A DNA stretch of 64,000 bases. Source: Opitutia bacterium. Its GTDB lineage: Bacteria; Verrucomicrobiota; Verrucomicrobiia; Opitutales; Opitutaceae. How positions within the stretch are numbered: the stretch's first letter is position 1; every line of letters begins with the position of its first letter. The notes under the pieces were generated by a model. That model did no database searches and was not told where the DNA came from. It saw only the letters and a list, made by a program, of their open reading frames with translations. Shown here piece after piece: positions 1-18,248 of the stretch. The stretch is from contig CANJVR010000005.1 in NCBI GenBank assembly GCA_947478395.1, positions 64,001 through 128,000 of the forward strand, given 5' to 3'. The position numbers and the translations under genes are program-made.

Positions 1-604
1 GCATGTGGGTGTCGACCGTGCGACTGTCGATGGGGTTTTCGTAACCCCAGACATCCTGCAACAACCGGTCGCGCGATTGCACGCGGCCGCGGCGGCGGAC
101 AAGAATTTCAAGGAGCTTGAACTCGGTTGCCGTCAAAACGAGAGGCTGGCCTGACAGGCTCACCTCATGCCGCGGCACGTCGATGTCGAGTTCGCCCAGA
201 CGCAAGCGCGATCCAACTTCCTCGGAGGCCGCCTGACTGCGCGAGAGTAATTTCTTGATCCGCAGCACGAGTTCACGCGGGCTAAACGGTTTCGTGACGT
301 AGTCGTCGGCGCCAAGTTCGAGGCCCAACACGCGATCCATCTCGGCGGCGCGAGCCGTCAGCATGATAACGGGAATCGACGCGGTGCCTGAATCGCGCCG
401 GAGGATTTTGCACACCTCGAGTCCGTCGACCTCCGGGAGCATCAGGTCGAGTACGATCAGAGCCGGACGCTCATCGCGCGCGATGGCGATGGCGCGCGCG
501 CCGTCCTTCGCGAAGAGGGGCACATAGCCGGCTTCGCGCAGCTTGAAGCCGAGGACTTCGAGCGCGTCCGGCTCGTCGTCAACGATGAGGATTTTCGACT
601 TCAT
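1..604 (-). CDS. phoB: PhoB/OmpR-family response regulator (3' end runs off the window)
   Basis: Not in the ORF track; hand translation from ATG at 604 gives MKSKILIVDDEPDALEVL...LIVLDLMLPEVDG...GADDYVTKPFSPREL...LTATEFKLL...VWGYENPIDSRTVDTHM (receiver plus winged helix). Overlaps the phoU end by 26 nt. Confidence 0.9.
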   Translation of the reverse strand, partial: MKSKILIVDDEPDALEVLGFKLREAGYVPLFAKDGARAIAIARDERPALIVLDLMLPEVDGLEVCKILRRDSGTASIPVIMLTARAAEMDRVLGLELGADDYVTKPFSPRELVLRIKKLLSRSQAASEEVGSRLRLGELDIDVPRHEVSLSGQPLVLTATEFKLLEILVRRRGRVQSRDRLLQDVWGYENPIDSRTVDTHM

Positions 605-1259
605 GGGATTTGGCAGCGGTGTGGCGAATATCCTTCGCCTCGTACAAATAGACGACTTCCTCGGCGATGTTCGTCGCGTGATCGGCGATACGCTCGAGGC
701 TCTTGGAAATCACCATCAGGTTAAGGCAGCGGGAAATGTTGGAAGGGCGCTCGACCATGTAACTCGAAAGCTCGCGGTGGAGCTGGCGGTTGAGGTTGTC
801 GACTTCCGTGTCCCGCGGCACCACGGCCCGAGCGCGCTCGGGATCGCGGTTGATGAAAGCGGTGATGCCTTCGCGCAACATCTCGAGGGCCATCGTGGCC
901 ATGCGCGGCAGATCGACGTAAGGTTTGAGCTGCGGCTCCGCGCCGAGCTCGATAGCGCGGCGGGTAATGGTCACGGCTTCGTCGCCGACGCGCTCGAGGT
1001 TCTGGGAAATTTTCATCGCGACGGTGATGAGACGGAGTTCGGTCGCGAGCGGGGCCTTCGTGAGGAGATGGATGGCCGTGTCATCGATCTCGACTTCGAA
1101 CTGGTCGAGAATCGCATCGTCCTGTTGCACCTGACGGGCCAGCGCATCATCGCGCTCGACCAAGGATCGCATCGCACGGGCCACGGCCGACTCGGCGTGG
1201 CTCGACATCGCCAAAAGACTTTCCTTCAGGCGCGTCATTTCTTCGGAGTAGTGGGTCAT
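579..1259 (-). CDS. phoU: Phosphate signalling protein PhoU
   Basis: Two PhoU repeats (LERVGDEA, LERIADHATNIAEEV); downstream of pstB. Confidence 0.96.
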   Translation of the reverse strand: MTHYSEEMTRLKESLLAMSSHAESAVARAMRSLVERDDALARQVQQDDAILDQFEVEIDDTAIHLLTKAPLATELRLITVAMKISQNLERVGDEAVTITRRAIELGAEPQLKPYVDLPRMATMALEMLREGITAFINRDPERARAVVPRDTEVDNLNRQLHRELSSYMVERPSNISRCLNLMVISKSLERIADHATNIAEEVVYLYEAKDIRHTAAKSHEVENPHR

Positions 1260-1369
1260 TGGTGAAAAGAAGTATGAAGTAACACGGATCCGCTATCAGT
1301 AAGGGATCAGTTCGAATGAGAAGGGTTCTCGGCCCTTACCACTTGTCACTTGAAACTTACCGCAGTGTT

Positions 1370-2260
1370 TTAGCCAAACCGCCCCGAGACGTAGGCCTCA
1401 GTCTGTGGATTGGCGGGATTCATGAAGATATTTCGCGTATCGGCGTATTCGATGAGTTTGCCGATGTAGAAAAACGCCGTTTTGTCAGAGCAGCGCGCGG
1501 CCTGCTGCATGTTGTGCGTCACGATCACGATGGTAAATTTCGTCCGCAGTTCCTGAATCAATTCCTCCACCTTCGCCGTGGCGATGGGATCGAGCGCCGA
1601 ACACGGCTCATCCATCAGGATGATCTCCGGCTCCACCGCAATGGCCCGAGCGATGCAGAGGCGCTGTTGCTGTCCGCCGGAGAGGCCAAGACCGGAAGTG
1701 TGCAACCGGTCCTTCACTTCCTCCCAGAGCGCGGCGCCGCGCAGGGATTTTTCGACGACCGCGTCGAGATCCGACTTGCTGTTACGACCCTGCAAGCGAA
1801 GTCCGTAGGTGATGTTTTCGTAGATCGATTTCGGGAATGGATTTGATTTCTGAAACACCATGCCGACGCGTTTGCGTAGCTCGATCACGTCGACACTCCG
1901 GTCGTAGATATCAATCCCACGGATCTTGATCGAGCCCTGCGCGACGCGCGTGCCCTCGATCAGGTCGTTCATGCGGTTGAGACAGCGGAGCAAGGTGGAC
2001 TTTCCGCAGCCGGATGGGCCGATAAAAGCCGTCACCTTTTTGTGCTCAATCTTGAGGCTGATATCATGGAGGGCCTGCGAGGCCCCGTAGAAAAAATCGA
2101 CGTGGTCGATGTCGATCAAGGTTTCGCCGACCAACGCTTCCCGCGCAGCAGGGGCCGACGCGACCGGGGCGGGCGCAACGGTGGAGCGGGCGGCGGGCGG
2201 CAGCGTGGATGTCCTGATATCCATTTTAGAAGAAGTGGCGGTCATTGACGGCGGAGGCAA
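1370..2260 (-). CDS. pstB: Phosphate ABC transporter ATPase PstB (true start may be 2245 or 2224)
   Basis: GPSGCGKST Walker [33 protein letters not shown], ends in YVSGRFG. Confidence 0.97.
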
Positions 2261-2269
2261 CCCGGGCGG

Positions 2270-3322
2270 TCACCATTTGTAGCGATTGCGAAGCTGGTTG
2301 CGGAGCACGATGGAGGCGGTGGCGATGAGCGCGACGATCATCAAAAAGACAAACGCGGTCCCGTATTGGACGCGCTCCGTGTACTCGTTCTGCGGGATCT
2401 TCGAGCTCACGACGTAAATGTGGTAAGGCAGCGCCATCACGCCCTGGAAAAAGAAATCGTTCACTGAGGTGAGGCCTTCCCACGGCAGTTTGTCCCGCAC
2501 CACGTAGGCGGCGGTGAACATGATCGGTGCCGTCTCGCCGGCGACGCGTGCGATGCCAAGAATGGACGACGTGAGGATGCCGGGCAATGCGTAGGGCAGG
2601 ACGTTCTTGCGGATCGTCTGCCACTTGGTCGCGCCAAGGGCGAGCGAACCCTCCCGAAACCCCTTGGGCACCGCCTTGAGTGATTCCTCCGAGGCGGTGA
2701 TCACCACGGGCAGGACCATGAACGCGAGCGTGAACCAGCCGGCGAGGAGCGAGACGTTCCAGCCAAAGAAAATCACGAACATGCCGAAACCGAAAAGCCC
2801 GAAGACGATTGAGGGCACCCCCGCGAGGTTGAGAATCGCCAGGCGGATGAACCGGATGAATTTTCCGTCACGGGCGTATTCGCTCAGGTAGATCGCCGCG
2901 GCCACGCCCAGGAGCAACGCGATCGTCATCGAGCCAATCACCAACAGCACGGTGCCAACGATCGCCGGAAAAATACCGCCCGCCGAGTAGACGTAGCTCT
3001 CGGATTTCACCGTGGCGACCGCCGGGTTACGCTCGAGGAAGGCACGGTAGTCCCGATCGCCGAGCTCCATTTTCTTGCCTTCGTATTCAAACACGTGGAG
3101 CGATTCGGGGGCCGAAGTCAGGAACGTGGTGTTGATGAACGGGGCTTCCTTTTTGAACAGGATCGGAGCGCCGCGGAACACGATCGTGAAAAGCACCGCG
3201 GCGCCGCACAGCAGCACAAAGTAAGTCGCGCCGCGGAACAGCCAGAACAGCACGCGCTCCCAGCTCCGGGCCGCGGACGGCTTGGTCACAAAATCGTGGG
3301 CGGTCGAAGTGGCGGGATTCAT
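2270..3322 (-). CDS. pstA: Phosphate ABC transporter permease PstA
   Basis: [37 protein letters not shown]; start taken at MNPATST. Confidence 0.95.
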
Positions 3323-3326
3323 GTGC

Positions 3327-4928
3327 TCAGCCGATGGAAATACGATAGCGACGCACCACACCCTGCGCGACGTAGTTGATGCCGAGCGAAAGGAAGAACA
3401 ACGCGATCCCGATCATGAACAGCGCGCGGTAGTGAATGCTGCCCTGCACCACTTCGCCCATTTCCTGTGCGATGATGCCGGTCATCGTGTGGACCGGCTG
3501 CGTGACGACGGCGAGTCCCGCCGTGAAATCGGGAATCGCGATCCGGTTGCCGGCGCAAAGCAGCACGACCATCGTTTCGCCGATCACCCGCCCGAGCCCT
3601 AGCAGAATAGCGGAAATAATGCCGGACAGCGACGCCGGCACGATGATCTTGATCACCGTCTGCAGCCGGGTCGCACCGAGGGCATACGAAGCTTCCTTGA
3701 ACGCCCGCGGCACGTTGTTCAGCGCGTCCTCCGCCAGTGTGAAAATCGTCGGGACCGCGAGCAGCGCGAGCAGGCAGCCCGCGGTGAGAATGTTCAGGCG
3801 CTCCGAATAGGGAAAGCCGGGGATCCAGGACAGCCACGAGATTTGGGACGCCGCGCGCAGACCCTGCCCGAGCACCGCAATTCCGAAAAATCCGAGCACG
3901 ACCGATGGAAACGCGGAAATGAACTCAATGGAGGGCTTGATAAAACTTTGCTCCGACTTCGAAGCGATCTGGTTCACATATATCGCCGCCCCCACCCCGA
4001 GCGGCACGGCAATGAGCAAAGCCACGCACGACACCATCAGCGAGCCGACAAAAAGCGGGAGGATGCCGTACCAGTCCTGCCAGGAACTCGCCGTCTGCCA
4101 TTCACGGCCAAGGAAGAATCCGGCGACTGACTGCCGCATCGGGACCTCCCGGCGGAAATCCCAGTCCGTGAGATCTCTCTCCACCGCGGAAAAGGTCTTC
4201 ACGTAGTCGCGGGTCAGCTCTTTGAACCGATCCATCCGCGCCCCTAATCCTGGCCCGGACAGCGAGGGCGCAGCTGCGAGGACCTCGTTCAGCTTGGCCG
4301 CGAACTCGGTGTTCAGCGCTTTAAACGCCGGCAGAGTTCCGACGATCGGCTTTAATTCCTCTGCGAAATTGACGGCCTGAATGGCCACTTTGCCCGCGTC
4401 ACTAGCCCGGTTTTGCGCGAGCAATTGGAGGCTCTCCTGCACCTTGTTCTCGTTGTTGGCGAATTTCTCTTTGATGGCGGTCGCGAGTTCCGTGAGCTCT
4501 GAAAGCAGGCGGCGAACCGGCACCACCGCTCCGTCATACTGTTCCGCAAAAGTATCGAAGCCCGCCAACGCGGCATTCGCGTCCTCGGCGGAAAGCTTCT
4601 TCTCGGCCGTCAGATAAACATATTGCCGCAACCGGATGTCGGACAAATAGCGCGTGAGCGCCATGTGGTCCTTCACCTCGGCGCGAATGAAGTCCACGTA
4701 TTCCAGGCCCGCCTGACGGTAGACGAGAATGTTCTGCCGGTTCTGCCCGAAAAACCCGGCGCCTTCGCGAAACAAGAAATAGGTGATCAGGGCGAGCACC
4801 ACAATTGAGATCACCGCGTTGCCGCCGAAAAAAACCTTGATGCAGTCGTCCAGCGTGAGGCCGAAGAGTTTGATTTTGCTCTTGTTCGCTAGAAAATGAG
4901 CCGGCGCGGCGGAGTCCGGTTTATTCAT
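3327..4928 (-). CDS. pstC: Phosphate ABC transporter permease PstC with a long extracytoplasmic insertion
   Basis: [39 protein letters not shown]; about 220 hydrophilic residues after the first TM helix. Confidence 0.95.
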
Positions 4929-4955
4929 CGTGCGAAGGGAGCCAGATTATTGAAG

Positions 4956-4990
4956 AAAAAGCCCGCCGACGTTCGGTCAAGCGGGCTCTT
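4956..4990 (-). terminator. Stem-loop with U tract between pstS and pstC (partial terminator or mRNA-stabilising hairpin)
   Basis: Minus strand: GCCCGC-loop-GCGGGC followed by TTTTT. Confidence 0.6.
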
Positions 4991-5016
4991 TCCAGGTGAG
5001 ATCGTGGTGACGAGCG

Positions 5017-5844
5017 TTATTCCGTCTTCGCCGTGACCGGCGCGACCATTCCGATGCTTTCGCTTTCGACAATCTTCTTCCCTTCGTCGCTCAGGGTGAA
5101 ATCGATGAACTTCTTGGCTTCACCGGTCGCTTCGCCGTTCGTGTAAAAGAAGGTTGGGCGGGCGAAGGCATATTTCTTCGTGAGCACGGTTTCCTTGCTC
5201 GGCATCACACCGTCGACGGACAACACCTTAATGCCGGCCTCGCGAATGTAAGCGAGTCCCACATAGCCGACGCCGGCCGGATTCTTGGCGACCTCGGACA
5301 CGATCTGCTCGTTGCCGGCCATCTTTTGCGACGACGAGGCGTAATCGATGCCGTTCATCGCCAGGGTGCGGAAGTCCGCGTAGGTGCCCGACGAGGTGTT
5401 ACGGGTGTAGATGGAGATCTTGCCGGCGCTGCCGCCCACTGCCGACCAATCGGTCACGCCACCCGAGAAAATCTTCTCGATCTGGGTCTTGGTCAATTTG
5501 GCGATCGGGTTGGCCGCATTGACGATGATCGCGATCCCGTCGTGGGCCACGATGATTGGCTTCAAGGTCACGCCCTTGGCCGAGGCCGCGGACACCTCGG
5601 TGGCTTTTGCACGCCGGGACGACATGCCGATCTGAGCGGTGCCATCGGTGATGGCGGCGATGCCCGTGGTCGAGCCTTCCGCGGCGATCTCAAAAGAGAC
5701 GCCTGGATTCTTCGCGACATAGGCTTCCTTGAGCAGGGGAACGAGTTTTGCGCCGAGGGTATCGGAGCCCTTGATCACGAGCTTTTGAGCGTGAGCGGCG
5801 GTGGCAAATGCGAGCGCCGCGATGATGAGAATAGATTTTTTCAT
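5017..5844 (-). CDS. pstS: Phosphate-binding protein PstS
   Basis: Signal peptide, IKGSDT, GSTTGI, IGMSSR, RNTSSGT motifs. Confidence 0.95.
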   Translation of the reverse strand: MKKSILIIAALAFATAAHAQKLVIKGSDTLGAKLVPLLKEAYVAKNPGVSFEIAAEGSTTGIAAITDGTAQIGMSSRRAKATEVSAASAKGVTLKPIIVAHDGIAIIVNAANPIAKLTKTQIEKIFSGGVTDWSAVGGSAGKISIYTRNTSSGTYADFRTLAMNGIDYASSSQKMAGNEQIVSEVAKNPAGVGYVGLAYIREAGIKVLSVDGVMPSKETVLTKKYAFARPTFFYTNGEATGEAKKFIDFTLSDEGKKIVESESIGMVAPVTAKTE

Positions 5845-5880
5845 GGTGAATGAAGATTGAGTGCGAAGGAGAGGAACGGA

Positions 5881-7194
5881 TTAGAATTTTACGACGAGAT
5901 CGACCAACAGTTCATGGGAACGGTTCATATTTCCGAGTGAGAACGCCATGTTCTTCTGGATGATTTTCGTGTCGAAATAGGTGACGTTGAAGTTGGCGAA
6001 GTCCGTCAGGTTGTAGCTGAGCGCGAGCTTGAAGCCCTTCTGGTTGAGTTTGCTGAAGCCCCAGTCGGAATCGTTGATATTGGGGTCTTCGGCGCCGATG
6101 CCGACTTCGCGGTAGTCGAGCTTGGCGCTATAGTCACCCTGGACTTTCCCGGTGCCGTAGCTGTAGCCCACGCCGCCAAGCCAAGCGGTCGCGCCCTTGC
6201 TGAATGACGCCGGATTCAGGCCGTAAACTTTGTACACCCGAGTCTCGGCTTCCGTGTTGTAGGAAGAATCCCAGTAGAATTTCAGGGCCGAACCCGGGCC
6301 GTTCAGGTTAGCCAGGTTCACTTCGCCCGCGAACGTGAAATAATTCTGCGCCCGCACCGAACCGACGTAAGCCGCGGAATTGAGCGGTGTCGCGGTGATG
6401 GTAGATTGGTTGTACGCCGAGTAACCGGGAGCGATGATCACGCTGCTGAGATTCTCCGGGCCGAACCACTTCGTGTAAACGGCCTGTTGTTCGAACAACC
6501 ATGTGTCGCGACCGGCCGGGCCAGGGGTGGCTTCGGAGCGATCTTCCATGGCGTGCTGCATCGCGCGGATTTCAAACGTGTCCTTCGCGCCGATGAAATA
6601 CTTGTAGATCTCGCTGATGCCTTGCGGACTGATGTCGGCGTCCCAGCGCATTTCGGTCGTGTAGAACGGATTCTTCTGCTTTCCGAGCACGAAGGCCCAG
6701 TTCAGATTCGGCTGCCAGCCCACGTAAGCGCGGGCGAGGAAAACGCCGTAATCATCGGCCGTGGTGACAAAAGTTTGATTGGCGGAATCGTTCGACTGAC
6801 CGCTCTCAAGCGCAAAGCCAGCGTTCCAACCTTTTTGGAGCAGCACGTCACCGTTGAAACGGAAACGGAAGCGCTGACGTGAGGTTTCGTTCACGAGCGT
6901 CGCCGCGCCAGCCGCGGTCTCAGGGACCTGGGCATTGTTTTCGTAGCGAATGCGCATGTCGCCCGAGAGCTTCAACTCAACGAGCGAAGAACTCAGGTTC
7001 ATCTTTCCCGCGGAGGTGTTGGTGGCAAAGTCCTTCGTCAGCTCGGCGCGGAGGTCTTCCGACTCCTGATCGGTGACGAGGCCCTTTTTCACGAGCAGAT
7101 TGAGGAGAGCGCCGCTATCCTGCGCGACAAGAGAGCCGGCGGACAGAACAACGCCGCCGAGAGCGGCGAGCCAGAGAGATTTCTTGAACAACAT
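5881..7194 (-). CDS. Putative outer-membrane porin, first gene of the pst operon
   Basis: Signal peptide, N-terminal LLNLLVKKGLVT helix, SGDMRIRYE, alternating beta strands, C-terminal Phe (DLVVKF). Confidence 0.8.
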   Translation of the reverse strand: MLFKKSLWLAALGGVVLSAGSLVAQDSGALLNLLVKKGLVTDQESEDLRAELTKDFATNTSAGKMNLSSSLVELKLSGDMRIRYENNAQVPETAAGAATLVNETSRQRFRFRFNGDVLLQKGWNAGFALESGQSNDSANQTFVTTADDYGVFLARAYVGWQPNLNWAFVLGKQKNPFYTTEMRWDADISPQGISEIYKYFIGAKDTFEIRAMQHAMEDRSEATPGPAGRDTWLFEQQAVYTKWFGPENLSSVIIAPGYSAYNQSTITATPLNSAAYVGSVRAQNYFTFAGEVNLANLNGPGSALKFYWDSSYNTEAETRVYKVYGLNPASFSKGATAWLGGVGYSYGTGKVQGDYSAKLDYREVGIGAEDPNINDSDWGFSKLNQKGFKLALSYNLTDFANFNVTYFDTKIIQKNMAFSLGNMNRSHELLVDLVVKF

Positions 7195-9790: not shown

Positions 9791-12490
9791 TCAATCGAGC
9801 GTATAGGCCTGCTCCGGCTCGTGGTCGGTTTCCACGTTGGCCGTGAGCGTCACCAAACTCTTCAACGAACTGAAATGCTGGCTCAGATCGAAATCCCCGC
9901 CAAGGCCGCCGATCAGCTTGTCGAACAAATCCTTCTTCGACGCCTTCAACGCCTGGATCCGTTCCTCGATCGTGCCGGCGGTGACCATGCGGTAGACGAA
10001 CACCGTGTTCGTCTGGCCGATGCGATGCACGCGGTCCACGGCCTGGGCCTCAACCGCCGGATTCCACCACGGATCGAGCAGGAAAACGTAATCCGCCGCG
10101 TGCAATGTGATTCCCGTGCCCGCGGCCTTGAGCGACACCAACATCGCCGCGGCGCCGGACGCCGTCTGAAATCCATGCACCGGTTTCTGGCGATCGAGCG
10201 TCATCCCGGTCAGTTCATAACGCGGCAAGTCGGGAAAATGCGTCGCAAGCGCCGTGCGCACACGCTCGAGCAACATCACGAATTGCGAGAAGATCACGAC
10301 CTTGTGCCCGCTACCGACGATTTCCGCGAGTTTCTCCACGAGGAGGTTGATCTTGCCCGAGTCGGAAAGCGGCGATTTGAGCCACGGCAACATGTCGGGA
10401 TCGCAACACGTCTGGCGCAACCGCGTGAGCAACGCGAGAAAGCCAAATGATTTTTCCCGCATCGCCGAGCCCACGTCGTCACCGAGGCGTTCCAAGCCCT
10501 CCGTACAGATGCGAGCGTACTCCGCGCGTTGGACGTCCGTGAGCGGACACACGAGGTCGATCTCCACTTTTTGCGGCAGCTCCGTCGCCACTTCCTTTTT
10601 CGTCCGACGCAGGAGAAACGGCGCCAGCTGCGCGCGCAATCGCGTGAGCGTGCCTTCGCGATCCGTGATCAACGCCGCCTCGAACGCCGCCCGGGAGCCC
10701 AGCAAGCCGGGCAGCAAAAAGCGAAAGATACTCCAGAGATCGAGCTGACGATTCTCGAGCGGGGTTCCGGTCAGCACGATGCGATGCCGTGCCCGAACCG
10801 CGAAACAGGTCTGCGTGATTTTTGCGTCCGGGTTCTTGATGAACTGGCCCTCGTCCAACACAGCGTAACCGAACTCGACGCCTTCCAGCATTGCGCGGTG
10901 TTTGCGCAACTGCGTGTAACTCGCGAGCCAGATTGCCGGCGCCGAATGGGTCGTAAAATCGTGACCGGTCTTCAGGACTTGCACCACAAGCGCCGGGAAA
11001 AACTTGGCCATCTCCTCGCGCCAAACCGGCACCACGCTCGCCGGGCAAACGATCACGTTGGACTTGTCCAACACGGGCCGCGAGGCGAGGAGCGAAAGGA
11101 CCTGGAGGGTTTTGCCGAGGCCCATCTCGTCGGCAAGCAGCCCGTGACAGCCCACATCGCAGAGATGATGCATCCACTCCACGCCTCGGCGTTGATAGGG
11201 CCGAAGCAATTCCGGCAGCGTGGGCGTCGCCTCGGTCGGCGCCAGCACGCGCTGCCGCCACGCTTCCATCTCGGGCGAAAGGGTGACCTTTAGTTTCGCA
11301 TCGTTGAAAAGCGAAAATACGAGGTACGGCGAAAGTGTCCCGCTCGCCGCCGCCCGGGGGCCTTGCGTTTCTTCGACGTTTTTTTGCCACGCGCTGAACG
11401 AATCCCAGCGGTCCGCCGGTAAAGAGACGATGCCCAGGTTTGGCAAAATCACCGGTTGTCCGCCGCGTTTGAGCAACGTGTTCACCTCGCTGTCGGTGAG
11501 CAGGCGTTCGCCGGCGCGGAAAATCCAGCGCAGGTTCAGCGCCGTGTGGCCCGCAGCGTCGGCGCCGCCCTCGGGCGTCCCGCCGGCCCGCTCGGCTACG
11601 GCCTCGATTTCGATCGCACGTGTGCCTTTGATGAGATTCGCCGCCTTCTCGTCGAGTTCGACGCCGAACATCCGGCGCCACGCGGGGAGCGTCGTCCTTA
11701 GAAAATTTGGAATCTCCACGAGAGACTCCATCAGATAAGCCCCGTTGTCCTGATTATAGTGGAAGTGCGCTTTCCGCGCATAGGCCGCGAGCCCGATCAA
11801 CTTCGCGCGCTCGCCGGACGAGATGTGACCGTTGTTATTCGCATGCGCGTCCGGCCCGAGTGCGGCGTGGCGCGTCTTGCGATCCGCCTCCAGCCAAAAG
11901 GCCTGAAACGCAAGTCCGGCGACCTTGGTTTTGAAAACCAGCAACAGCGGTCGGGCCGTTGCGCTCAAGCGTGAAGCCGGGCTTACGCCGCCATTGACGC
12001 GCGCCATGCCATGGCCCGAAGGCTGCGTCGCAGCCGCAGCAGGCGGATGCGCACGCGGCGTCATCGCACCGGGACGGCTCGATTCAAAGCTATGGTTATG
12101 GGCATTACCATGGCCCGGAGCCGCACCCGAAGGCCGGGGGGCGTCGTCGGGCAACGGGGAAATTTCATCGGCCACCAACTCCTCGATCTCGTGCAGCCCA
12201 GCGACCGCGAGTGCATGGGCCACCTCAATATCCGTCGACGACGAGCGAACCGAAAAGCCTTCGGCGTCCCATGCGATGACGGCGTACTCGTCCTTTTTTT
12301 CCACGCGCCGATGGACGATGGCGTCACGTTCGGTCAGCTCCAGCTCGCGAACCTGACCGTCGCGATAGATCTGCCGGCCAACTTCCAACTGGGTGGAGGT
12401 GAAGCGTCCCGCCCAGTCCTGCTCGAGCTTTCCAAACCAGAACTCGAGCGAATGGGGGGTATAGACGCGCTTCGGACCGTGAGACTGCAT
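9791..12490 (-). CDS. SNF2-family DNA-dependent ATPase/helicase
   Basis: LADEMGLGKT, LDEGQFIKN, LTGTPLEN, SLKAAGTGITL, DPWWNPAVEAQAVDRVHRIGQ; start taken at MQSHGPK. Confidence 0.93.
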   Translation of the reverse strand: MQSHGPKRVYTPHSLEFWFGKLEQDWAGRFTSTQLEVGRQIYRDGQVRELELTERDAIVHRRVEKKDEYAVIAWDAEGFSVRSSSTDIEVAHALAVAGLHEIEELVADEISPLPDDAPRPSGAAPGHGNAHNHSFESSRPGAMTPRAHPPAAAATQPSGHGMARVNGGVSPASRLSATARPLLLVFKTKVAGLAFQAFWLEADRKTRHAALGPDAHANNNGHISSGERAKLIGLAAYARKAHFHYNQDNGAYLMESLVEIPNFLRTTLPAWRRMFGVELDEKAANLIKGTRAIEIEAVAERAGGTPEGGADAAGHTALNLRWIFRAGERLLTDSEVNTLLKRGGQPVILPNLGIVSLPADRWDSFSAWQKNVEETQGPRAAASGTLSPYLVFSLFNDAKLKVTLSPEMEAWRQRVLAPTEATPTLPELLRPYQRRGVEWMHHLCDVGCHGLLADEMGLGKTLQVLSLLASRPVLDKSNVIVCPASVVPVWREEMAKFFPALVVQVLKTGHDFTTHSAPAIWLASYTQLRKHRAMLEGVEFGYAVLDEGQFIKNPDAKITQTCFAVRARHRIVLTGTPLENRQLDLWSIFRFLLPGLLGSRAAFEAALITDREGTLTRLRAQLAPFLLRRTKKEVATELPQKVEIDLVCPLTDVQRAEYARICTEGLERLGDDVGSAMREKSFGFLALLTRLRQTCCDPDMLPWLKSPLSDSGKINLLVEKLAEIVGSGHKVVIFSQFVMLLERVRTALATHFPDLPRYELTGMTLDRQKPVHGFQTASGAAAMLVSLKAAGTGITLHAADYVFLLDPWWNPAVEAQAVDRVHRIGQTNTVFVYRMVTAGTIEERIQALKASKKDLFDKLIGGLGGDFDLSQHFSSLKSLVTLTANVETDHEPEQAYTLD

Positions 12491-12577: not shown

Positions 12578-12622
12578 TTGTAACAGAGCCGCCACGCAAC
12601 CGACACGGAAAGGGGTTAGTTA
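12578..12622 (+). promoter_or_regulatory. Triple Pho box plus candidate -10 for the glycolipid operon
   Basis: TTGTAAC (12578), CCGCCAC (12589), CCGACAC (12600) at 11-bp periodicity, then 10 bp, then TAGTTA; same geometry as the pst promoter. Confidence 0.7.
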
Positions 12623-12666
12623 TTCACAATCCTAAATCCCGCGACCCCGACGCTCATCGACCTTTC

Positions 12667-13851
12667 GTGAAAATCGCCCTCGTCACTGAAACCTTCCCAC
12701 CGGAAATCAATGGCGTGGCGATGACGTTCGGCGTGATCGCGCGCGAGCTCGGCCGGCGCGGCCATCAGCTCACGGTCTACCGGCCCCGCCGCAACGACCT
12801 GCCGGCGCCCGATGCTCAAACCGGCTATCGCGTCGTGCCCCTGCCCGGCCTGCCCATCCCGGGTTATGCGCTGCTCCGACTGGGATTACCCGCCGGCGGC
12901 ACCCTGCGCCGCAACTGGCGGGCCGACCGCCCCGACCTCGTGCACGTCGCCACCGAAGGCCCGCTCGGCGCTTCCGCCGTCACCGCGGCCCGCGCCCTCG
13001 GCTTGCCCGTCACCTCAAGTTTCCACACCAACTTTCACGCCTACACCCGGCACTATGGCGTCGGCCCGCTCCAAAGCGTAGCTCTCGCCTGGCTGCGCCA
13101 CGTTCACAATCGCACGCGCCGGACTTTTGCGCCGACGACCGAACTCTGCACCGAACTGGCCGCACTTGGTTTTCGCGATCTGGCCGTGCTCTCGCGCGGC
13201 GTGGACACGACGCAATTTCGTCCGGACCGGCGCTCCGCCGAACTCCGCGCATCGTGGGGCGTCGCGCCGGATGAGCCGGTGGTCATTCACGCGGGGCGAA
13301 TGGCGGCCGAGAAAAATTATCCGCTGCTGCTTCGCGCCTTTGCCGCCATGCGCGCAGTCGAGCCGCGTTTGCGCTTCGTCCTGATCGGCGACGGTCCGTT
13401 GCGACCGTCGCTGCAGCGCCAGTTCCCCGCGGGTATCTTCACCGGCTTCATCCCGCGCGACGATCTCGCCCGGCACTACGCCTCGGCCGACATCTACATT
13501 CATGCGAGCCTCACCGAGACGTTTGGCAACGTCCTCACCGAGGCCATGGCCAGCGGGCTGGCGGTGGCGGGTTTCGACTACGCCGCCGCGCGGCAATTTA
13601 TTCGATCCGGCGAAAATGGCTTGAGCGTGCCCACGGATCAGCCCGAGGCGTTCATCGCCGCCGGTGTACGTCTGGCCACGGACGCGGCCTTGCGTCAGAG
13701 CCTCCGCACGCAAGCCCGGCTGACCGTCGAGCCGCAGTCGTGGGAAACCGTCATCAGTGATTTCGAAGCGAATCTCGCAGCCGTCGTTGCCGAACATGCA
13801 ACTCCGCCTGCGGCGCTCGGGCGTGTTCCCGCGCCGACGTTCAACGCGTAA
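12667..13851 (+). CDS. GT4 glycosyltransferase (Agt/SqdX-like glycolipid synthase)
   Basis: MKIALVTETFPPEINGVAMT, VHVATEGPLG, SSFHTNF, GRMAAEKN, ETFGNVLTEAMASG. Confidence 0.88.
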   Translation: MKIALVTETFPPEINGVAMTFGVIARELGRRGHQLTVYRPRRNDLPAPDAQTGYRVVPLPGLPIPGYALLRLGLPAGGTLRRNWRADRPDLVHVATEGPLGASAVTAARALGLPVTSSFHTNFHAYTRHYGVGPLQSVALAWLRHVHNRTRRTFAPTTELCTELAALGFRDLAVLSRGVDTTQFRPDRRSAELRASWGVAPDEPVVIHAGRMAAEKNYPLLLRAFAAMRAVEPRLRFVLIGDGPLRPSLQRQFPAGIFTGFIPRDDLARHYASADIYIHASLTETFGNVLTEAMASGLAVAGFDYAAARQFIRSGENGLSVPTDQPEAFIAAGVRLATDAALRQSLRTQARLTVEPQSWETVISDFEANLAAVVAEHATPPAALGRVPAPTFNA

Positions 13852-13867
13852 ATCTTCCCATCGACCC

Positions 13868-15304
13868 ATGTCTATCCCGGCCGAAACCTTGAGCGCCCAG
13901 CCTTCCACCTCGGACGTCCAGCGCCCGACCACCAAGCGCCCGCTTCAACTGCTCATTCTCACGGCCGGTTACGGCGAAGGTCATAACGCCGCCGCGCGTG
14001 CGATCGCCGAAGCGTGCGTTGCCAAACACGGTGCCGGTTCGGCCCGTGTGATCGATATCTTTGCGTTGTCCGCCCCGCGCCTGAATGCGGTCAGCCGCCG
14101 CGCCTATCTCGCCACGATCAACGGCGCGCCGAAAATCTGGAGCCGCCTCTACGCGTGGATCGACCGTTCGAACATCGTGCCGCGGTGCATGTGGATGCTT
14201 GGTCGCGAGCGTCGCTTGCTGGCCAAAATCATCGCCGAAGAGACTCCGGTCGCGTTGTGCAGCACGTATCCCGTTTACGCGTTTCTCATCGCGCGGCTCG
14301 CGCACGACGGCCACTCGCTGCCGCCGCACTACAACGTCGTCACCGACTCCATCAGCATCAACTCGCTGTGGTGGCGCGCGGGAGCGGCCGGCTGGTTTCT
14401 GCCGAATGAAGATTCCGCGGCAGTCCTCCGCTGCGCCGGCGTGGAGCGCGACCGATTGCACGTCAGCGGTTTTCCGGTGCCGGCTTTTTTCGGCCACAAC
14501 GCCGCCCACCTCTTTCCCCCCGACCTCACCCCGGCAACATGTCACTTAATAGGTGACATGTTGCCGGATGGGGGCCGAGTGCCCCCAACGCCCGCCGAAG
14601 CCCTGGCGAAGGCGAGCCCCCGTATTCTTTACATCATCAACTCTGGCACCCACCACGCCGGAGAAACCGCGCGCCGGCTCCTCGCCGAGTCCGATTGGGA
14701 AATCACCATTGCGGTCGGTCGCGATGAAGCCCTGCGCCAAAAACTGACCACGCTCGCCGCCGGGCGAGCACGTCCCGCCCATATTCTCGGTTGGTCCGAT
14801 CAGATCCCTCATCTGCTTATGACGCACCACGCCGTCATCAGCAAAGCCGGCGGCGCCACCACGCAAGAGGCCATCGCTGCGCGCTGCCCGATGATCGTCA
14901 ACCAAGTCGTGCCCGGTCAGGAAGAGGGGAACTACGAGCTGCTCCGCCGCCACCACGCCGGTGCGCTCGCCGAAACTCCCGATGCCGTGATGACCACGCT
15001 GCGCGGTGCCTTTGCCGACGGCGGCGCCGGCTGGCACCGCTGGCGTACCGCCCTCTCAACTCTCGTCCGGAACGACGCCGCCAGCGTAATCGTCAGCCAG
15101 ATTCTCTCCGCAACCAAAGGTGCAGCTGGCGCCGTCAACTCGCTTCCCCACCGCGACCCGCCGTCAGCCACATGTCACCTATTAAGTGACATTCCCGCCT
15201 CTTTCCCTGCAACGGTCGAAGCCGCTCCGGCTTCTATGGGGATGAGTACGGCTGCCCATGCACTCCCGCGTTCCTCCGTCGGCGGCGCTTCTTCCCTCGC
15301 ATGA
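13868..15304 (+). CDS. GT28 MGDG synthase/UgtP-like diacylglycerol glycosyltransferase with repeat-derived insertions
   Basis: TAGYGEGHNAAA, VVTD, SGFPV, ISKAGGATTQEA, VPGQEEGN. Confidence 0.88.
   Translation: MSIPAETLSAQPSTSDVQRPTTKRPLQLLILTAGYGEGHNAAARAIAEACVAKHGAGSARVIDIFALSAPRLNAVSRRAYLATINGAPKIWSRLYAWIDRSNIVPRCMWMLGRERRLLAKIIAEETPVALCSTYPVYAFLIARLAHDGHSLPPHYNVVTDSISINSLWWRAGAAGWFLPNEDSAAVLRCAGVERDRLHVSGFPVPAFFGHNAAHLFPPDLTPATCHLIGDMLPDGGRVPPTPAEALAKASPRILYIINSGTHHAGETARRLLAESDWEITIAVGRDEALRQKLTTLAAGRARPAHILGWSDQIPHLLMTHHAVISKAGGATTQEAIAARCPMIVNQVVPGQEEGNYELLRRHHAGALAETPDAVMTTLRGAFADGGAGWHRWRTALSTLVRNDAASVIVSQILSATKGAAGAVNSLPHRDPPSATCHLLSDIPASFPATVEAAPASMGMSTAAHALPRSSVGGASSLA
14531..14617. 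repeat. In-frame cluster of three hairpins inside the GT28 gene
   Basis: Perfect 15-bp inverted repeat CCGGCAACATGTCAC-N7-GTGACATGTTGCCGG (14531-14567), TGGGGGC/GCCCCCA (14569-14587) and CCGCCGAAGCCCTGGCGAAGGCG. Confidence 0.75.
15172..15192. repeat. Second copy of the TGTCAC-N7-GTGACA palindrome, opposite orientation
   Basis: ATGTCACCTATTAAGTGACAT is the exact reverse complement of the 21-nt core at 14539-14559. Confidence 0.8.
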
Positions 15305-16245
15305 AAACTCGTTTCATTTTTAACCCGCACTCCGGTCGGCACGCCCGCAACGCGCGTCTCCTGCCCCTCCTGCGCGATTTCATCGTCCGCCGCGGGCTCG
15401 ATGCCGACCTCATCGCCACCGAAGGTCCAGGTCACGCCACCGCCCTTGCGCGCGACGCGGTCAACAACGGCTGCGAGCGCGTCGTGGCCGTCGGAGGCGA
15501 CGGCACGATGAACGAAGTGGCGCAAGCGCTCCTCTACACGCCTGCCGCCTTGGGCCTCATTCCTTGTGGTTCCGGCAACGGGCTGGCGCTCCATCTCGGG
15601 CTTCCGCTCACGCCCCTCGACGCGCTCGAACTCGTGACCGCCGCCGGCAGTCGCGTCGCCGCCGTTGATACCGGCTCGGTGAACGGCATGCCTTTTTTCA
15701 ACGCCATGGGCTTCGGCCTCGATGCCGAAGTGAGCCGCCGTTTCAACCACCTCACGAAACGCGGCCTGCCCGCGTATGCGCGCACCGCATTCGCCGCATT
15801 TGCGCAACGAAAGAGCGAACTCTGCACGATCCGCACCGCGGGCCATCAGGAAAAAATCGAGGCGATGCTCATCGCCGTCGCCAATTCGGACCAATACGGC
15901 AACCGCGCCTTCATCGCGCCGGGCGCCCGCGTGGACGACGGCCAGCTCGACCTGATCGCGATTCGCCCCGTGGGACTGTTTGGGGCCGCGGTATTGGGGG
16001 CCCATCTTTTTCTCGGATCGATCGATCGCAGTCCGAAAATCCGCCGGCTGCGCGGCGCGAAGTTTGTGATCGAGCGCGCCGCCCCCGGCCTCGTCCATAC
16101 CGACGGCGAAACGCATCCGACCAGCGCGAGGGTCGAAGTGCTCGTCCATCCCCGCAGCCTCCGCGTGGTCCTGCCCGCGACCTCACGCGCCATCGCGTTT
16201 AGCGACGACCTCACCCCCGCCGGATTCGCCCTTCAGCTACCCTAA
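15301..16245 (+). CDS. Diacylglycerol kinase family lipid kinase (YegS/DagK type)
   Basis: FNPHSG, VGGDGTMNEV, IPCGSGNGLA, DDGQLD, HTDGE; ATGA overlap with GT28. Confidence 0.9.
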   Translation: MKTRFIFNPHSGRHARNARLLPLLRDFIVRRGLDADLIATEGPGHATALARDAVNNGCERVVAVGGDGTMNEVAQALLYTPAALGLIPCGSGNGLALHLGLPLTPLDALELVTAAGSRVAAVDTGSVNGMPFFNAMGFGLDAEVSRRFNHLTKRGLPAYARTAFAAFAQRKSELCTIRTAGHQEKIEAMLIAVANSDQYGNRAFIAPGARVDDGQLDLIAIRPVGLFGAAVLGAHLFLGSIDRSPKIRRLRGAKFVIERAAPGLVHTDGETHPTSARVEVLVHPRSLRVVLPATSRAIAFSDDLTPAGFALQLP

Positions 16246-16270
16246 GCCCGTAGATCCAGTTTATCCTACC

Positions 16271-17089
16271 ATGAAAAAACTTCGCGTGCGTACCGTGATT
16301 TTGTCCGACATTCATCTCGGCACCGCCGAGAGCAAGGCGGCCGAGGTGAATCATTTCCTGCGCAATGTGCGCTGCGAAAAACTTATCCTCAACGGCGACA
16401 TCATCGACGGCTGGGCACTCCAGCGCGGCGGTAGCTGGACAAAAGCACACACACGTTTCATCCGGATCGTGCTAAAAAAACTCGAGAAGCGCGACACGCA
16501 GGTCGTCTACCTGCGGGGCAATCACGACGACATCCTCGCGCAATTTCTGCCGCTCGATTTTGAAAACCTCACCGTCGTCGAGGATCACATCCACGAAACC
16601 GCGCACGGGCGCTATCTCGTGCTCCACGGCGATGTCTTCGACACGGTCACCAAAAATTTCGTCTGGCTCGCCCATCTCGGCGATTGGGGCTACCGCGCGC
16701 TCCTCAAACTGAATCGCGCCTATAACGCCTGGCGCGCTTGGCGCGGTCTCGAATACTGGTCCCTCAGCAAAGCGATCAAGGCGCGCGTCAAATCCGCGGT
16801 CAGTCACGTCTCAAATTTTGAGGAGCACATCGCCGAACTCGCGCGTTCCCGCGACTGCGTCGGCGTCATGTGCGGCCACATTCACACCGCCGCCGACAAG
16901 CAACTCGGCACGATCCGTTACCTGAATTCCGGCGACTGGGTCGAATCGCTCACCGCGCTCGTCGAGCACTGGGACGGCCGCCTCGAACTCATTAACTACA
17001 CGGATTTCATTCGTGAATTTCCGCTGCCGAGCGAAGAACCGGCGAGCGAGGAGCCAGCCGACACGGAGCTCGCCGGGGTCATCGCCTAG
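16271..17089 (+). CDS. PlcP-like metallophosphoesterase (family usually annotated UDP-2,3-diacylglucosamine hydrolase)
   Basis: SDIHLG, NGDIIDGW, GNHD, HGDVFD, YWSLS, CGHIH, YLNSGDWVESLTALVE. Confidence 0.82.
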   Translation: MKKLRVRTVILSDIHLGTAESKAAEVNHFLRNVRCEKLILNGDIIDGWALQRGGSWTKAHTRFIRIVLKKLEKRDTQVVYLRGNHDDILAQFLPLDFENLTVVEDHIHETAHGRYLVLHGDVFDTVTKNFVWLAHLGDWGYRALLKLNRAYNAWRAWRGLEYWSLSKAIKARVKSAVSHVSNFEEHIAELARSRDCVGVMCGHIHTAADKQLGTIRYLNSGDWVESLTALVEHWDGRLELINYTDFIREFPLPSEEPASEEPADTELAGVIA

Positions 17090-17227
17090 AGCGGTGTAAC
17101 CCAAAGCGTAGCCGCTAGCAGGCGTAGCGGCAGGCGTCCTTGCCTGCGGAAACGACGACGCCAAGCCGGCAGGCAGGGACGCCTGCCGCTACCCCTAAAC
17201 GGCCACGGACAAACGAAGCCCGCCCTA
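17087..17227. mobile_element. MITE-like repeat with internal GTAG REP doublet, copy 1
   Basis: Starts TAGAGCGG (TAG is the stop of the upstream gene), ends CCGCCCTA; internal GTAGCGGCAGGCGTCC...GGACGCCTGCCGCTAC at 17124-17192. Confidence 0.7.
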
Positions 17228-18113: not shown

Positions 18114-18248
18114 AGCGGCTTAATTTTTTACGTGGCCGTTGTGGGTAGCAGCCGGCGTCCGCGCCTGCCGAAACGACGACGCCAAGCCGGCAGGCAGGGA
18201 CGCCTGCCGCTACGTTGTCAGCGGCTACGCTCTTGGTTACGCCCCGAA
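18111..18248. mobile_element. MITE-like repeat, copy 2 (reverse orientation)
   Basis: Starts TAAAGCGG (TAA is the yoaK stop); REP doublet at 18145-18213; 44 nt identical to copy 1. Confidence 0.7.

Follow-up and report, generated by a model that had tools for sequence, protein, structure and literature searches.

A Pho-box-preceded four-gene operon of Opitutaceae with a predicted role in membrane lipid remodelling

Introduction

The plcP-agt-dagK operon of Burkholderia cenocepacia (BCAL2364-2366) is induced by phosphate depletion, and its kinase has been proposed to recycle excess diacylglycerol (DAG) (PMC13691135). Here we describe a related operon from an Opitutia bacterium (Verrucomicrobiota; Opitutaceae), which lies on the plus strand at positions 12667-17089 of ‘the window’, a 64,000-nucleotide stretch of DNA (positions 64,001 to 128,000 of contig CANJVR010000005.1, assembly GCA_947478395.1). 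As in B. cenocepacia, genes for a PlcP enzyme, a GT4 glycosyltransferase and a lipid kinase are brought together in one operon, the substrate of the kinase being a prediction here; unlike that operon, ours carries an extra GT28 glycosyltransferase, runs in the reverse order with plcP last, and encodes a GT4 that falls outside the Agt1/Agt clade. The plcP-agt operon of Ralstonia, which matches that of Burkholderia, has a membrane DgkA (PF01219) where we find a soluble kinase of the YegS/DgkB type, and it appears from the sequences that the same design has been achieved with a kinase unrelated to that of Ralstonia.

Pseudomonas aeruginosa pairs a Pho-boxed PlcP with two transferases, Agt1 (PA3219-PA3218 being the PlcP-Agt1 pair) and Agt2 (PA0842), to make one neutral and one anionic glycolipid (PMC8528852). 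The Opitutaceae operon likewise joins a Pho-boxed PlcP to two transferases, with 46% identity to the PlcP and 44% to Agt2 and with products that are predicted; the P. aeruginosa system, however, uses two GT4 enzymes, two loci and alpha-linked lipids, whereas here plcP shares its operon with an Agt2-like GT4, and an inverting GT28 is the predicted source of the neutral lipid. In type Ia methanotrophs, plcP is found with a gene for a UgtP-like DAG glycosyltransferase of predicted function (PMC9239053); a GT28-type DAG glycosyltransferase adjoins plcP in both cases, its activity predicted in each, but in the methanotrophs it replaces agt, while here it accompanies both a GT4 and a kinase.

PlcP has already been listed for Verrucomicrobia among marine PlcP contexts (PMC4796936), and the enzyme described here belongs to the same clade as those proteins and as the PlcP of Sinorhizobium meliloti (SMc00171). 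The passages of that paper covered here give neither a four-gene verrucomicrobial operon nor a Pho-box consensus, and its supplementary Table S2 may list verrucomicrobial plcP neighbourhoods. In the literature outside subscription journals we found neither the four genes described as an operon nor a Pho box reported for Opitutales, verrucomicrobial plcP being mentioned only in passing. An earlier note on this window, made from the DNA letters, had known of no characterisation of the four-gene arrangement in the phylum; this holds for the set of four genes, with its novelty lowered by the Burkholderia operon (PMC13691135) and by the verrucomicrobial plcP already listed (PMC4796936). New within the searched literature are the four-gene set, the soluble kinase in the place that DgkA takes in Ralstonia, and a Pho-box consensus for Opitutales.

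Results

We consider it probable that the operon is switched by PhoB under low phosphate, and that its products would then replace phospholipids with phosphorus-free glycolipids, with GT4 and GT28 working in parallel. Its four co-oriented open reading frames encode the GT4 (12667-13851; PF13439/PF00534), the GT28 (13868-15304; PF06925), the kinase (15301-16245; PF00781 and PF19279) and a metallophosphoesterase (16271-17089; PF00149), separated by 16, -4 and 25 bp, in keeping with the tight packing reported by the earlier note; the GT28 start was taken as the ATG at 13868, the listed GTG at 13757 being one that would overlap GT4. The closest named homologues of the hydrolase are from Opitutaceae, and its description as part of a verrucomicrobial version therefore holds. 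These genes, with their families, their orthology, their synteny and the promoter motif that they share with other loci, are read directly from the genomes.

The array that precedes the operon (12578-12606, plus strand) consists of three 7-mer half-sites with an 11-bp period, TTGTAAC, CCGCCAC and CCGACAC, beginning at 12578, 12589 and 12600. At a distance of 5.3 kb, a matching triple site (TTGTCAC, CCGCCAT and TTGTAAC, at 7278-7250 on the minus strand) lies upstream of the porin-pstSCAB-phoU genes, so that the architecture shared with the pst promoter some 5 kb off, as previously described, is confirmed. We derived a half-site matrix (a 7-4-7 repeat) de novo from 24 promoters that precede orthologous operons of relatives, with our own genome, every pst promoter and 9 of the 11 same-genus promoters left out of training, which gave the consensus YYGYMAC-N4, usually in three copies. 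When three half-sites were scored across 2422 upstream regions, taken from home-made gene calls, this matrix placed the genome's own pst promoter first and the operon second; eight regions reached at least 15 bits at 11-bp spacing, as against 0, 1, 1 and 2 at 9, 10, 12 and 13 bp. These ranks, together with the specificity for the 11-bp spacing, argue that the repeat at the two promoters is not due to chance.

Of 20 porin promoters checked in relatives, every one of the 19 that adjoin pstS carries the triple site by this matrix, and the twentieth, which lacks pstS, does not. A second matrix trained on those 19 promoters places the operon third among the 2422 regions, and is significant (p <=0.02 against 300 Markov-1 resamples, kin not being independent) in 23 of 33 operon promoters of relatives, including all 17 at four-gene loci; the box is thus conserved upstream of orthologues. 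At both promoters a hexamer starting with TA falls exactly 10 nt past the last half-site, TAGTCT for pst and TAGTTA for the operon, the latter (12617-12622, plus strand) being a predicted, imperfectly matching -10 element; a sigma-70 scan detected no site in the operon promoter.

The box also accompanies the genes when they move. It is kept by close GT4 orthologues that have relocated in three relatives (G021, G031 and G019), in the last of which the GT4 (L128:424-3311) and the pst porin are read away from each other, each side having its own box, and in G051, where GT4-kinase and PlcP are arranged divergently, there is one site per side. Its presence varies among distant GT4 copies, and it was found in none of eight stand-alone kinase genes of relatives. 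Assignment of the box to the divergent SNF2 gene was rejected, as it stays when the upstream neighbour is miaA, a phytase-like gene or the pst porin; a long SNF2 reading frame starting at 12595 was likewise discarded, the coding score placing the start at 12490.

Two further loci behind the repeat fit as candidate members of the Pho regulon: a TonB receptor with a type I phosphodiesterase (L080:5484-9547; rank 5 with the operon-trained matrix), and a small gene with an alkaline phosphatase (L086:2813-5409; rank 14). As a separate observation, a DUF1592/DUF1552 cytochrome-like pair (L081:8074-11430; G000:C2:780073-783429) carries a strong triple repeat, the second in rank for the matrix trained on pst promoters; the pair has no known link to phosphate.

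The phosphate-uptake genes themselves (porin, pstS, pstC, pstA, pstB and phoU; 579-7194, minus strand) are presumably co-regulated with the operon. Past phoU there is a PhoB-like response regulator (1-604, minus strand, extending beyond the edge of the window), followed by a PhoR-like kinase, and this regulator is likely to be the cognate one for the operon. The locus combines 7-mer repeats of 11-bp period, common to the pst promoter, with a phoBR pair, as is typical of a Pho regulon, and PhoB would be expected to bind the array.

The hydrolase is 40% identical to the PlcP of S. meliloti, as well as 46% to that of P. aeruginosa, against 21% for Escherichia coli LpxH. The references were picked by gene context, as the S. 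meliloti gene adjoining sinI/sinR and the P. aeruginosa gene leading a hydrolase-GT4 pair, which we take to be SMc00171 and PA3219, respectively; with either as query the hydrolase is the sole match in the genome, and the E. coli LpxH query gave no match there. In a tree of 27 rows it falls inside the proteobacterial PlcP clade (support 100/99), separate from LpxH and from Bacteroidota LpxH2-like proteins. All of the metallophosphoesterase motifs (DxH, GD, GNHD, HGD and GHxH) are present; the difference between GNHD and GNRD helps to tell PlcP from LpxH, although GNHD alone is not diagnostic, being found also in the Bacteroidota LpxH2-like proteins. Its neighbourhood, with a Pho box and a gene for a non-phosphorus lipid nearby, is that of a PlcP, and a sequence search of the PDB returned no match. 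It occurs in 38 of 61 genomes, as expected of an accessory gene. Taken together, its phylogeny bears out the earlier description as PlcP-like, and supports a predicted phospholipase C of the PlcP clade, for which Mn-dependent release of DAG and induction on starvation are predicted. We note besides that a PlcP-like protein of Parabacteroides (L071:3977-4747) clusters with the Opitutales hydrolases (100/100).

GT4 is closest, among characterised homologues, to Agt2 of P. aeruginosa (44% identity over the full length, E 1e-94, against 33% to Agt1); the reference is the gene that follows plcH-plcR, which we take to be PA0842. Its motifs are GRMAAEKN and SLTETFG, the latter holding a Glu, as in Agt2, at a position that is a catalytic Asp in the Agt/GTcp clade. 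The motif of that clade is FPSXTDTFG, and in GTcp its Asp cannot be exchanged for Glu (PMC8231724); the tree puts GT4 outside the Agt1 clade (100/99). The earlier assignment as an Agt-type GT4 thus stands for the glycosyltransferase family and gives way to an Agt2-like enzyme in place of the classical Agt. Since Agt2 produces glucuronosyl-DAG (PMC8528852), GT4 is predicted to be a glucuronosyl-DAG synthase, perhaps specific for UDP-glucuronate, which could be supplied by two NDP-sugar dehydrogenases encoded in the genome. A SqdX-like sulfolipid synthase was rejected, as a single S. meliloti SqdB query retrieved no more than a 27% fragment from this genome (98.8% complete); so was an N-acetylglucosaminyl-PG synthase (149 bits against a cut-off of 480, Agt2 also scoring 135).

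For GT28, PF06925 is matched above cut-off, a GxGH motif is present, and the predicted GT-B fold is nearest to MGD1 (TM 0.78 by target), the best PDB sequence matches being 9wde and 4wyi; the score for the UgtP equivalog is below cut-off (147.8 against 500). We predict a neutral beta-glycosyl-DAG synthase like UgtP and MGD1, which it matches best in sequence and in fold. Its linker contains an in-frame insertion, and its C terminus carries a disordered extension. A dispersed palindrome (16 genomic copies, 13 of them intergenic) lies twice inside the gene, at 14538-14563 in the linker insertion, which is of some 25 residues and missing in orthologues, and at 15168-15190 in the C-terminal extension, both regions being of low confidence in the predicted structure. 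GT28 was matched in 25 of the 61 genomes, all in its own family (one match being weak), which makes it a later addition. There is a second, distant GT28 gene resembling MGDG synthases (L089:4340-5575; G000:C4:76339-77574), which follows an ACP-FabA fusion, a ketoacyl synthase and an SDR gene; it is not among the top motif matches, and possibly belongs to a constitutive glycolipid cluster.

The soluble kinase passes TIGR00147 (122.3 bits; cut-off 118.65), retains the ATP-site motifs GGDGT (GGDG) and DGE, and is the only protein in the genome with this domain, a separate DgkA being encoded elsewhere. Substrates in the YegS/DgkB/BmrU family are DAG, phosphatidylglycerol or ceramide (PMC10331486), and DAG is the one predicted here. 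The earlier note had it reversing the flux when phosphate returns; this seems less likely, as the starvation promoter covers the kinase as well and a second enzyme, DgkA, is encoded outside the operon. We find it more likely that it limits free DAG, since a recycler of the excess would fit both that promoter and the Burkholderia model.

Of the hydrolase loci of 37 relatives, 16 keep all four genes in this order (11 from the same genus, 5 from other genera), which answers the question of synteny favourably, and one more does so with a broken kinase; a further five are interrupted by contig ends and still consistent with it. The others read GT4-PlcP (five), GT4-kinase-PlcP (four), GT28-kinase-PlcP (one) and kinase-PlcP (one), with one divergent arrangement and three cases of PlcP alone. 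GT4 and the hydrolase occur together in 37 of 39 genomes with either gene (kin not being independent), and GT4 plus PlcP is the core of the operon.

Downstream, GTAG-type REP (repetitive extragenic palindromic) elements at 17120-17195 and 18140-18200 bracket a DUF1275 gene; the genome holds 123 copies, none within called genes.

Discussion

Synthesising these findings, we propose a model in which scarce phosphate would lead the neighbouring PhoB to activate the operon through the triple repeat common to the pst genes. The PlcP enzyme would then remove phosphate head groups from phospholipids, yielding phosphate and DAG, and the Agt2-like GT4 would put glucuronic acid (possibly glucose too) on DAG to give an anionic substitute for phosphatidylglycerol; in a parallel branch the UgtP/MGD-like GT28 would attach at least one neutral hexose to DAG, giving a neutral substitute lipid, whilst the co-expressed kinase would turn surplus DAG into phosphatidic acid and so prevent its build-up. 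PhoB binding, induction, and all of the enzyme activities and products in this scheme are predictions from sequence.

Several observations weigh against the model. Both the PhoB-like and the PhoR-like genes score under their NCBIfam cut-offs (243.9 bits against 296.2 for the best match of the regulator, TIGR02154); the matrix trained on pst promoters fails to reach significance at 10 of the 33 operon promoters of relatives, the misses being the shorter and more distant operons, and most of the remaining top-10 motif matches (TonB receptors, DUF1592, TPR, peptidase S9, pseudouridine synthase and GDSL genes) are without an evident link to phosphate. The GT4 tree shuts the enzyme out of the Agt1 clade without giving it a resolved position as sister to Agt2, and GT28 is only some 20% identical to UgtP and MGD1. 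Finally, kinase homologues are spread through the family (35 of 36 members), five of the genomes that have one being without a detected PlcP, and the kinase is missing at the five GT4-PlcP loci, so that it is not integral to the system; DgkA is present in the genome as well.

The earlier note had the two glycosyltransferases possibly making mono- and then di-glycosyl-DAG. We retain the pair and favour parallel over serial action, because GT4 resembles Agt2 more than Agt1; a serial route, in which GT4 would make monoglycosyl or glucuronosyl DAG and GT28 add a second sugar, strikes us as unlikely, if deserving of attention. In Caulobacter, two PhoB-regulated transferases do work in series on ceramide (PMC6445935). 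All genomes with a strong GT28 match also have GT4, within the limits of fragmented assemblies, and relative G021 retains a separate GT4-GT28 pair behind the box; in relative G031, however, GT28 adjoins the kinase and PlcP, with GT4 located elsewhere. Against a serial route, too, the nearest characterised GT28 enzymes are UgtP and MGD1, and MGD1 acts on DAG itself. So does UgtP of Bacillus (PMC9239053).

It is a good deal less probable that the transferases, the kinase or both act on ceramide or sphingoid bases in place of DAG, as do the PhoB-regulated transferases Sgt1/Sgt2 and a CpgB-like kinase of the YegS/DgkB superfamily in Caulobacter (PMC6445935, PMC10331486). Spt-like genes have been reported from metagenome-assembled genomes of Verrucomicrobiota (PMC11334938). 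The sole oxoamine synthase of our genome best matches serine palmitoyltransferases (NF047600, 368 bits, below the cut-off of 640; PDB 8guh and 3a2b), and is matched in 35 of 36 family members, a count equal to that of the kinase; its gene (L115:8288-9484; G000:C5:36287-37483) sits among GT4 genes. Sphingoid lipids, or amino lipids related to them, may be formed in Opitutaceae. The presence of PlcP within the operon points, by contrast, to DAG, and the spt-like gene is outside the top 30 motif matches. Single queries that we take to represent a Roseomonas bCerS and a CpgB-like kinase gave, respectively, a fragment of 73 residues only (E 0.004) and no match to the operon kinase, and a single presumed CerR-like query from Roseomonas gave only generic SDR matches.

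That the hydrolase is an LpxH/LpxH2-type UDP-diacylglucosamine hydrolase of lipid A synthesis, in a housekeeping envelope operon with an incidental repeat, would agree with its automatic database name (LpxH), with waaA downstream and with the GNHD of Bacteroidota LpxH2-like proteins, but is largely refuted by profile scores (39.5 bits where the cut-off is 134, with no match to TIGR01854, and neither that model nor NF003743 reached above cut-off), by the lack of GNRD and of a lipid A need, LpxI being present here and near universal (58 of 61 genomes), and by the tree and the promoter motif, and we regard it as highly improbable.

We are thus left with parallel remodelling of DAG as our preferred reading, within which one may speculate, tentatively, that Opitutaceae have independently built a one-operon ‘kit’ for anionic glucuronosyl lipids and plant-like beta-linked neutral glycolipids, with a YegS-family kinase in the role of DgkA in Burkholderiaceae; in its boldest form, part of the kit would act on sphingolipids derived from the conserved serine-palmitoyltransferase-like enzyme. 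If true, there would be a definite cellular function for a kinase of the YegS type, and the operon offers in any case a context for testing one. Our general understanding of how bacteria remodel their lipids is unchanged. What the operon would do is to add Opitutales to the range of a well-studied phosphorus-saving pathway, and the glycolipids predicted for the order can be searched for by lipidomics; it also corrects a widespread mis-annotation as LpxH in this order, and provides, in YYGYMAC-N4, a consensus with which the phosphate regulon can be mapped in a phylum that had none in the literature searched.

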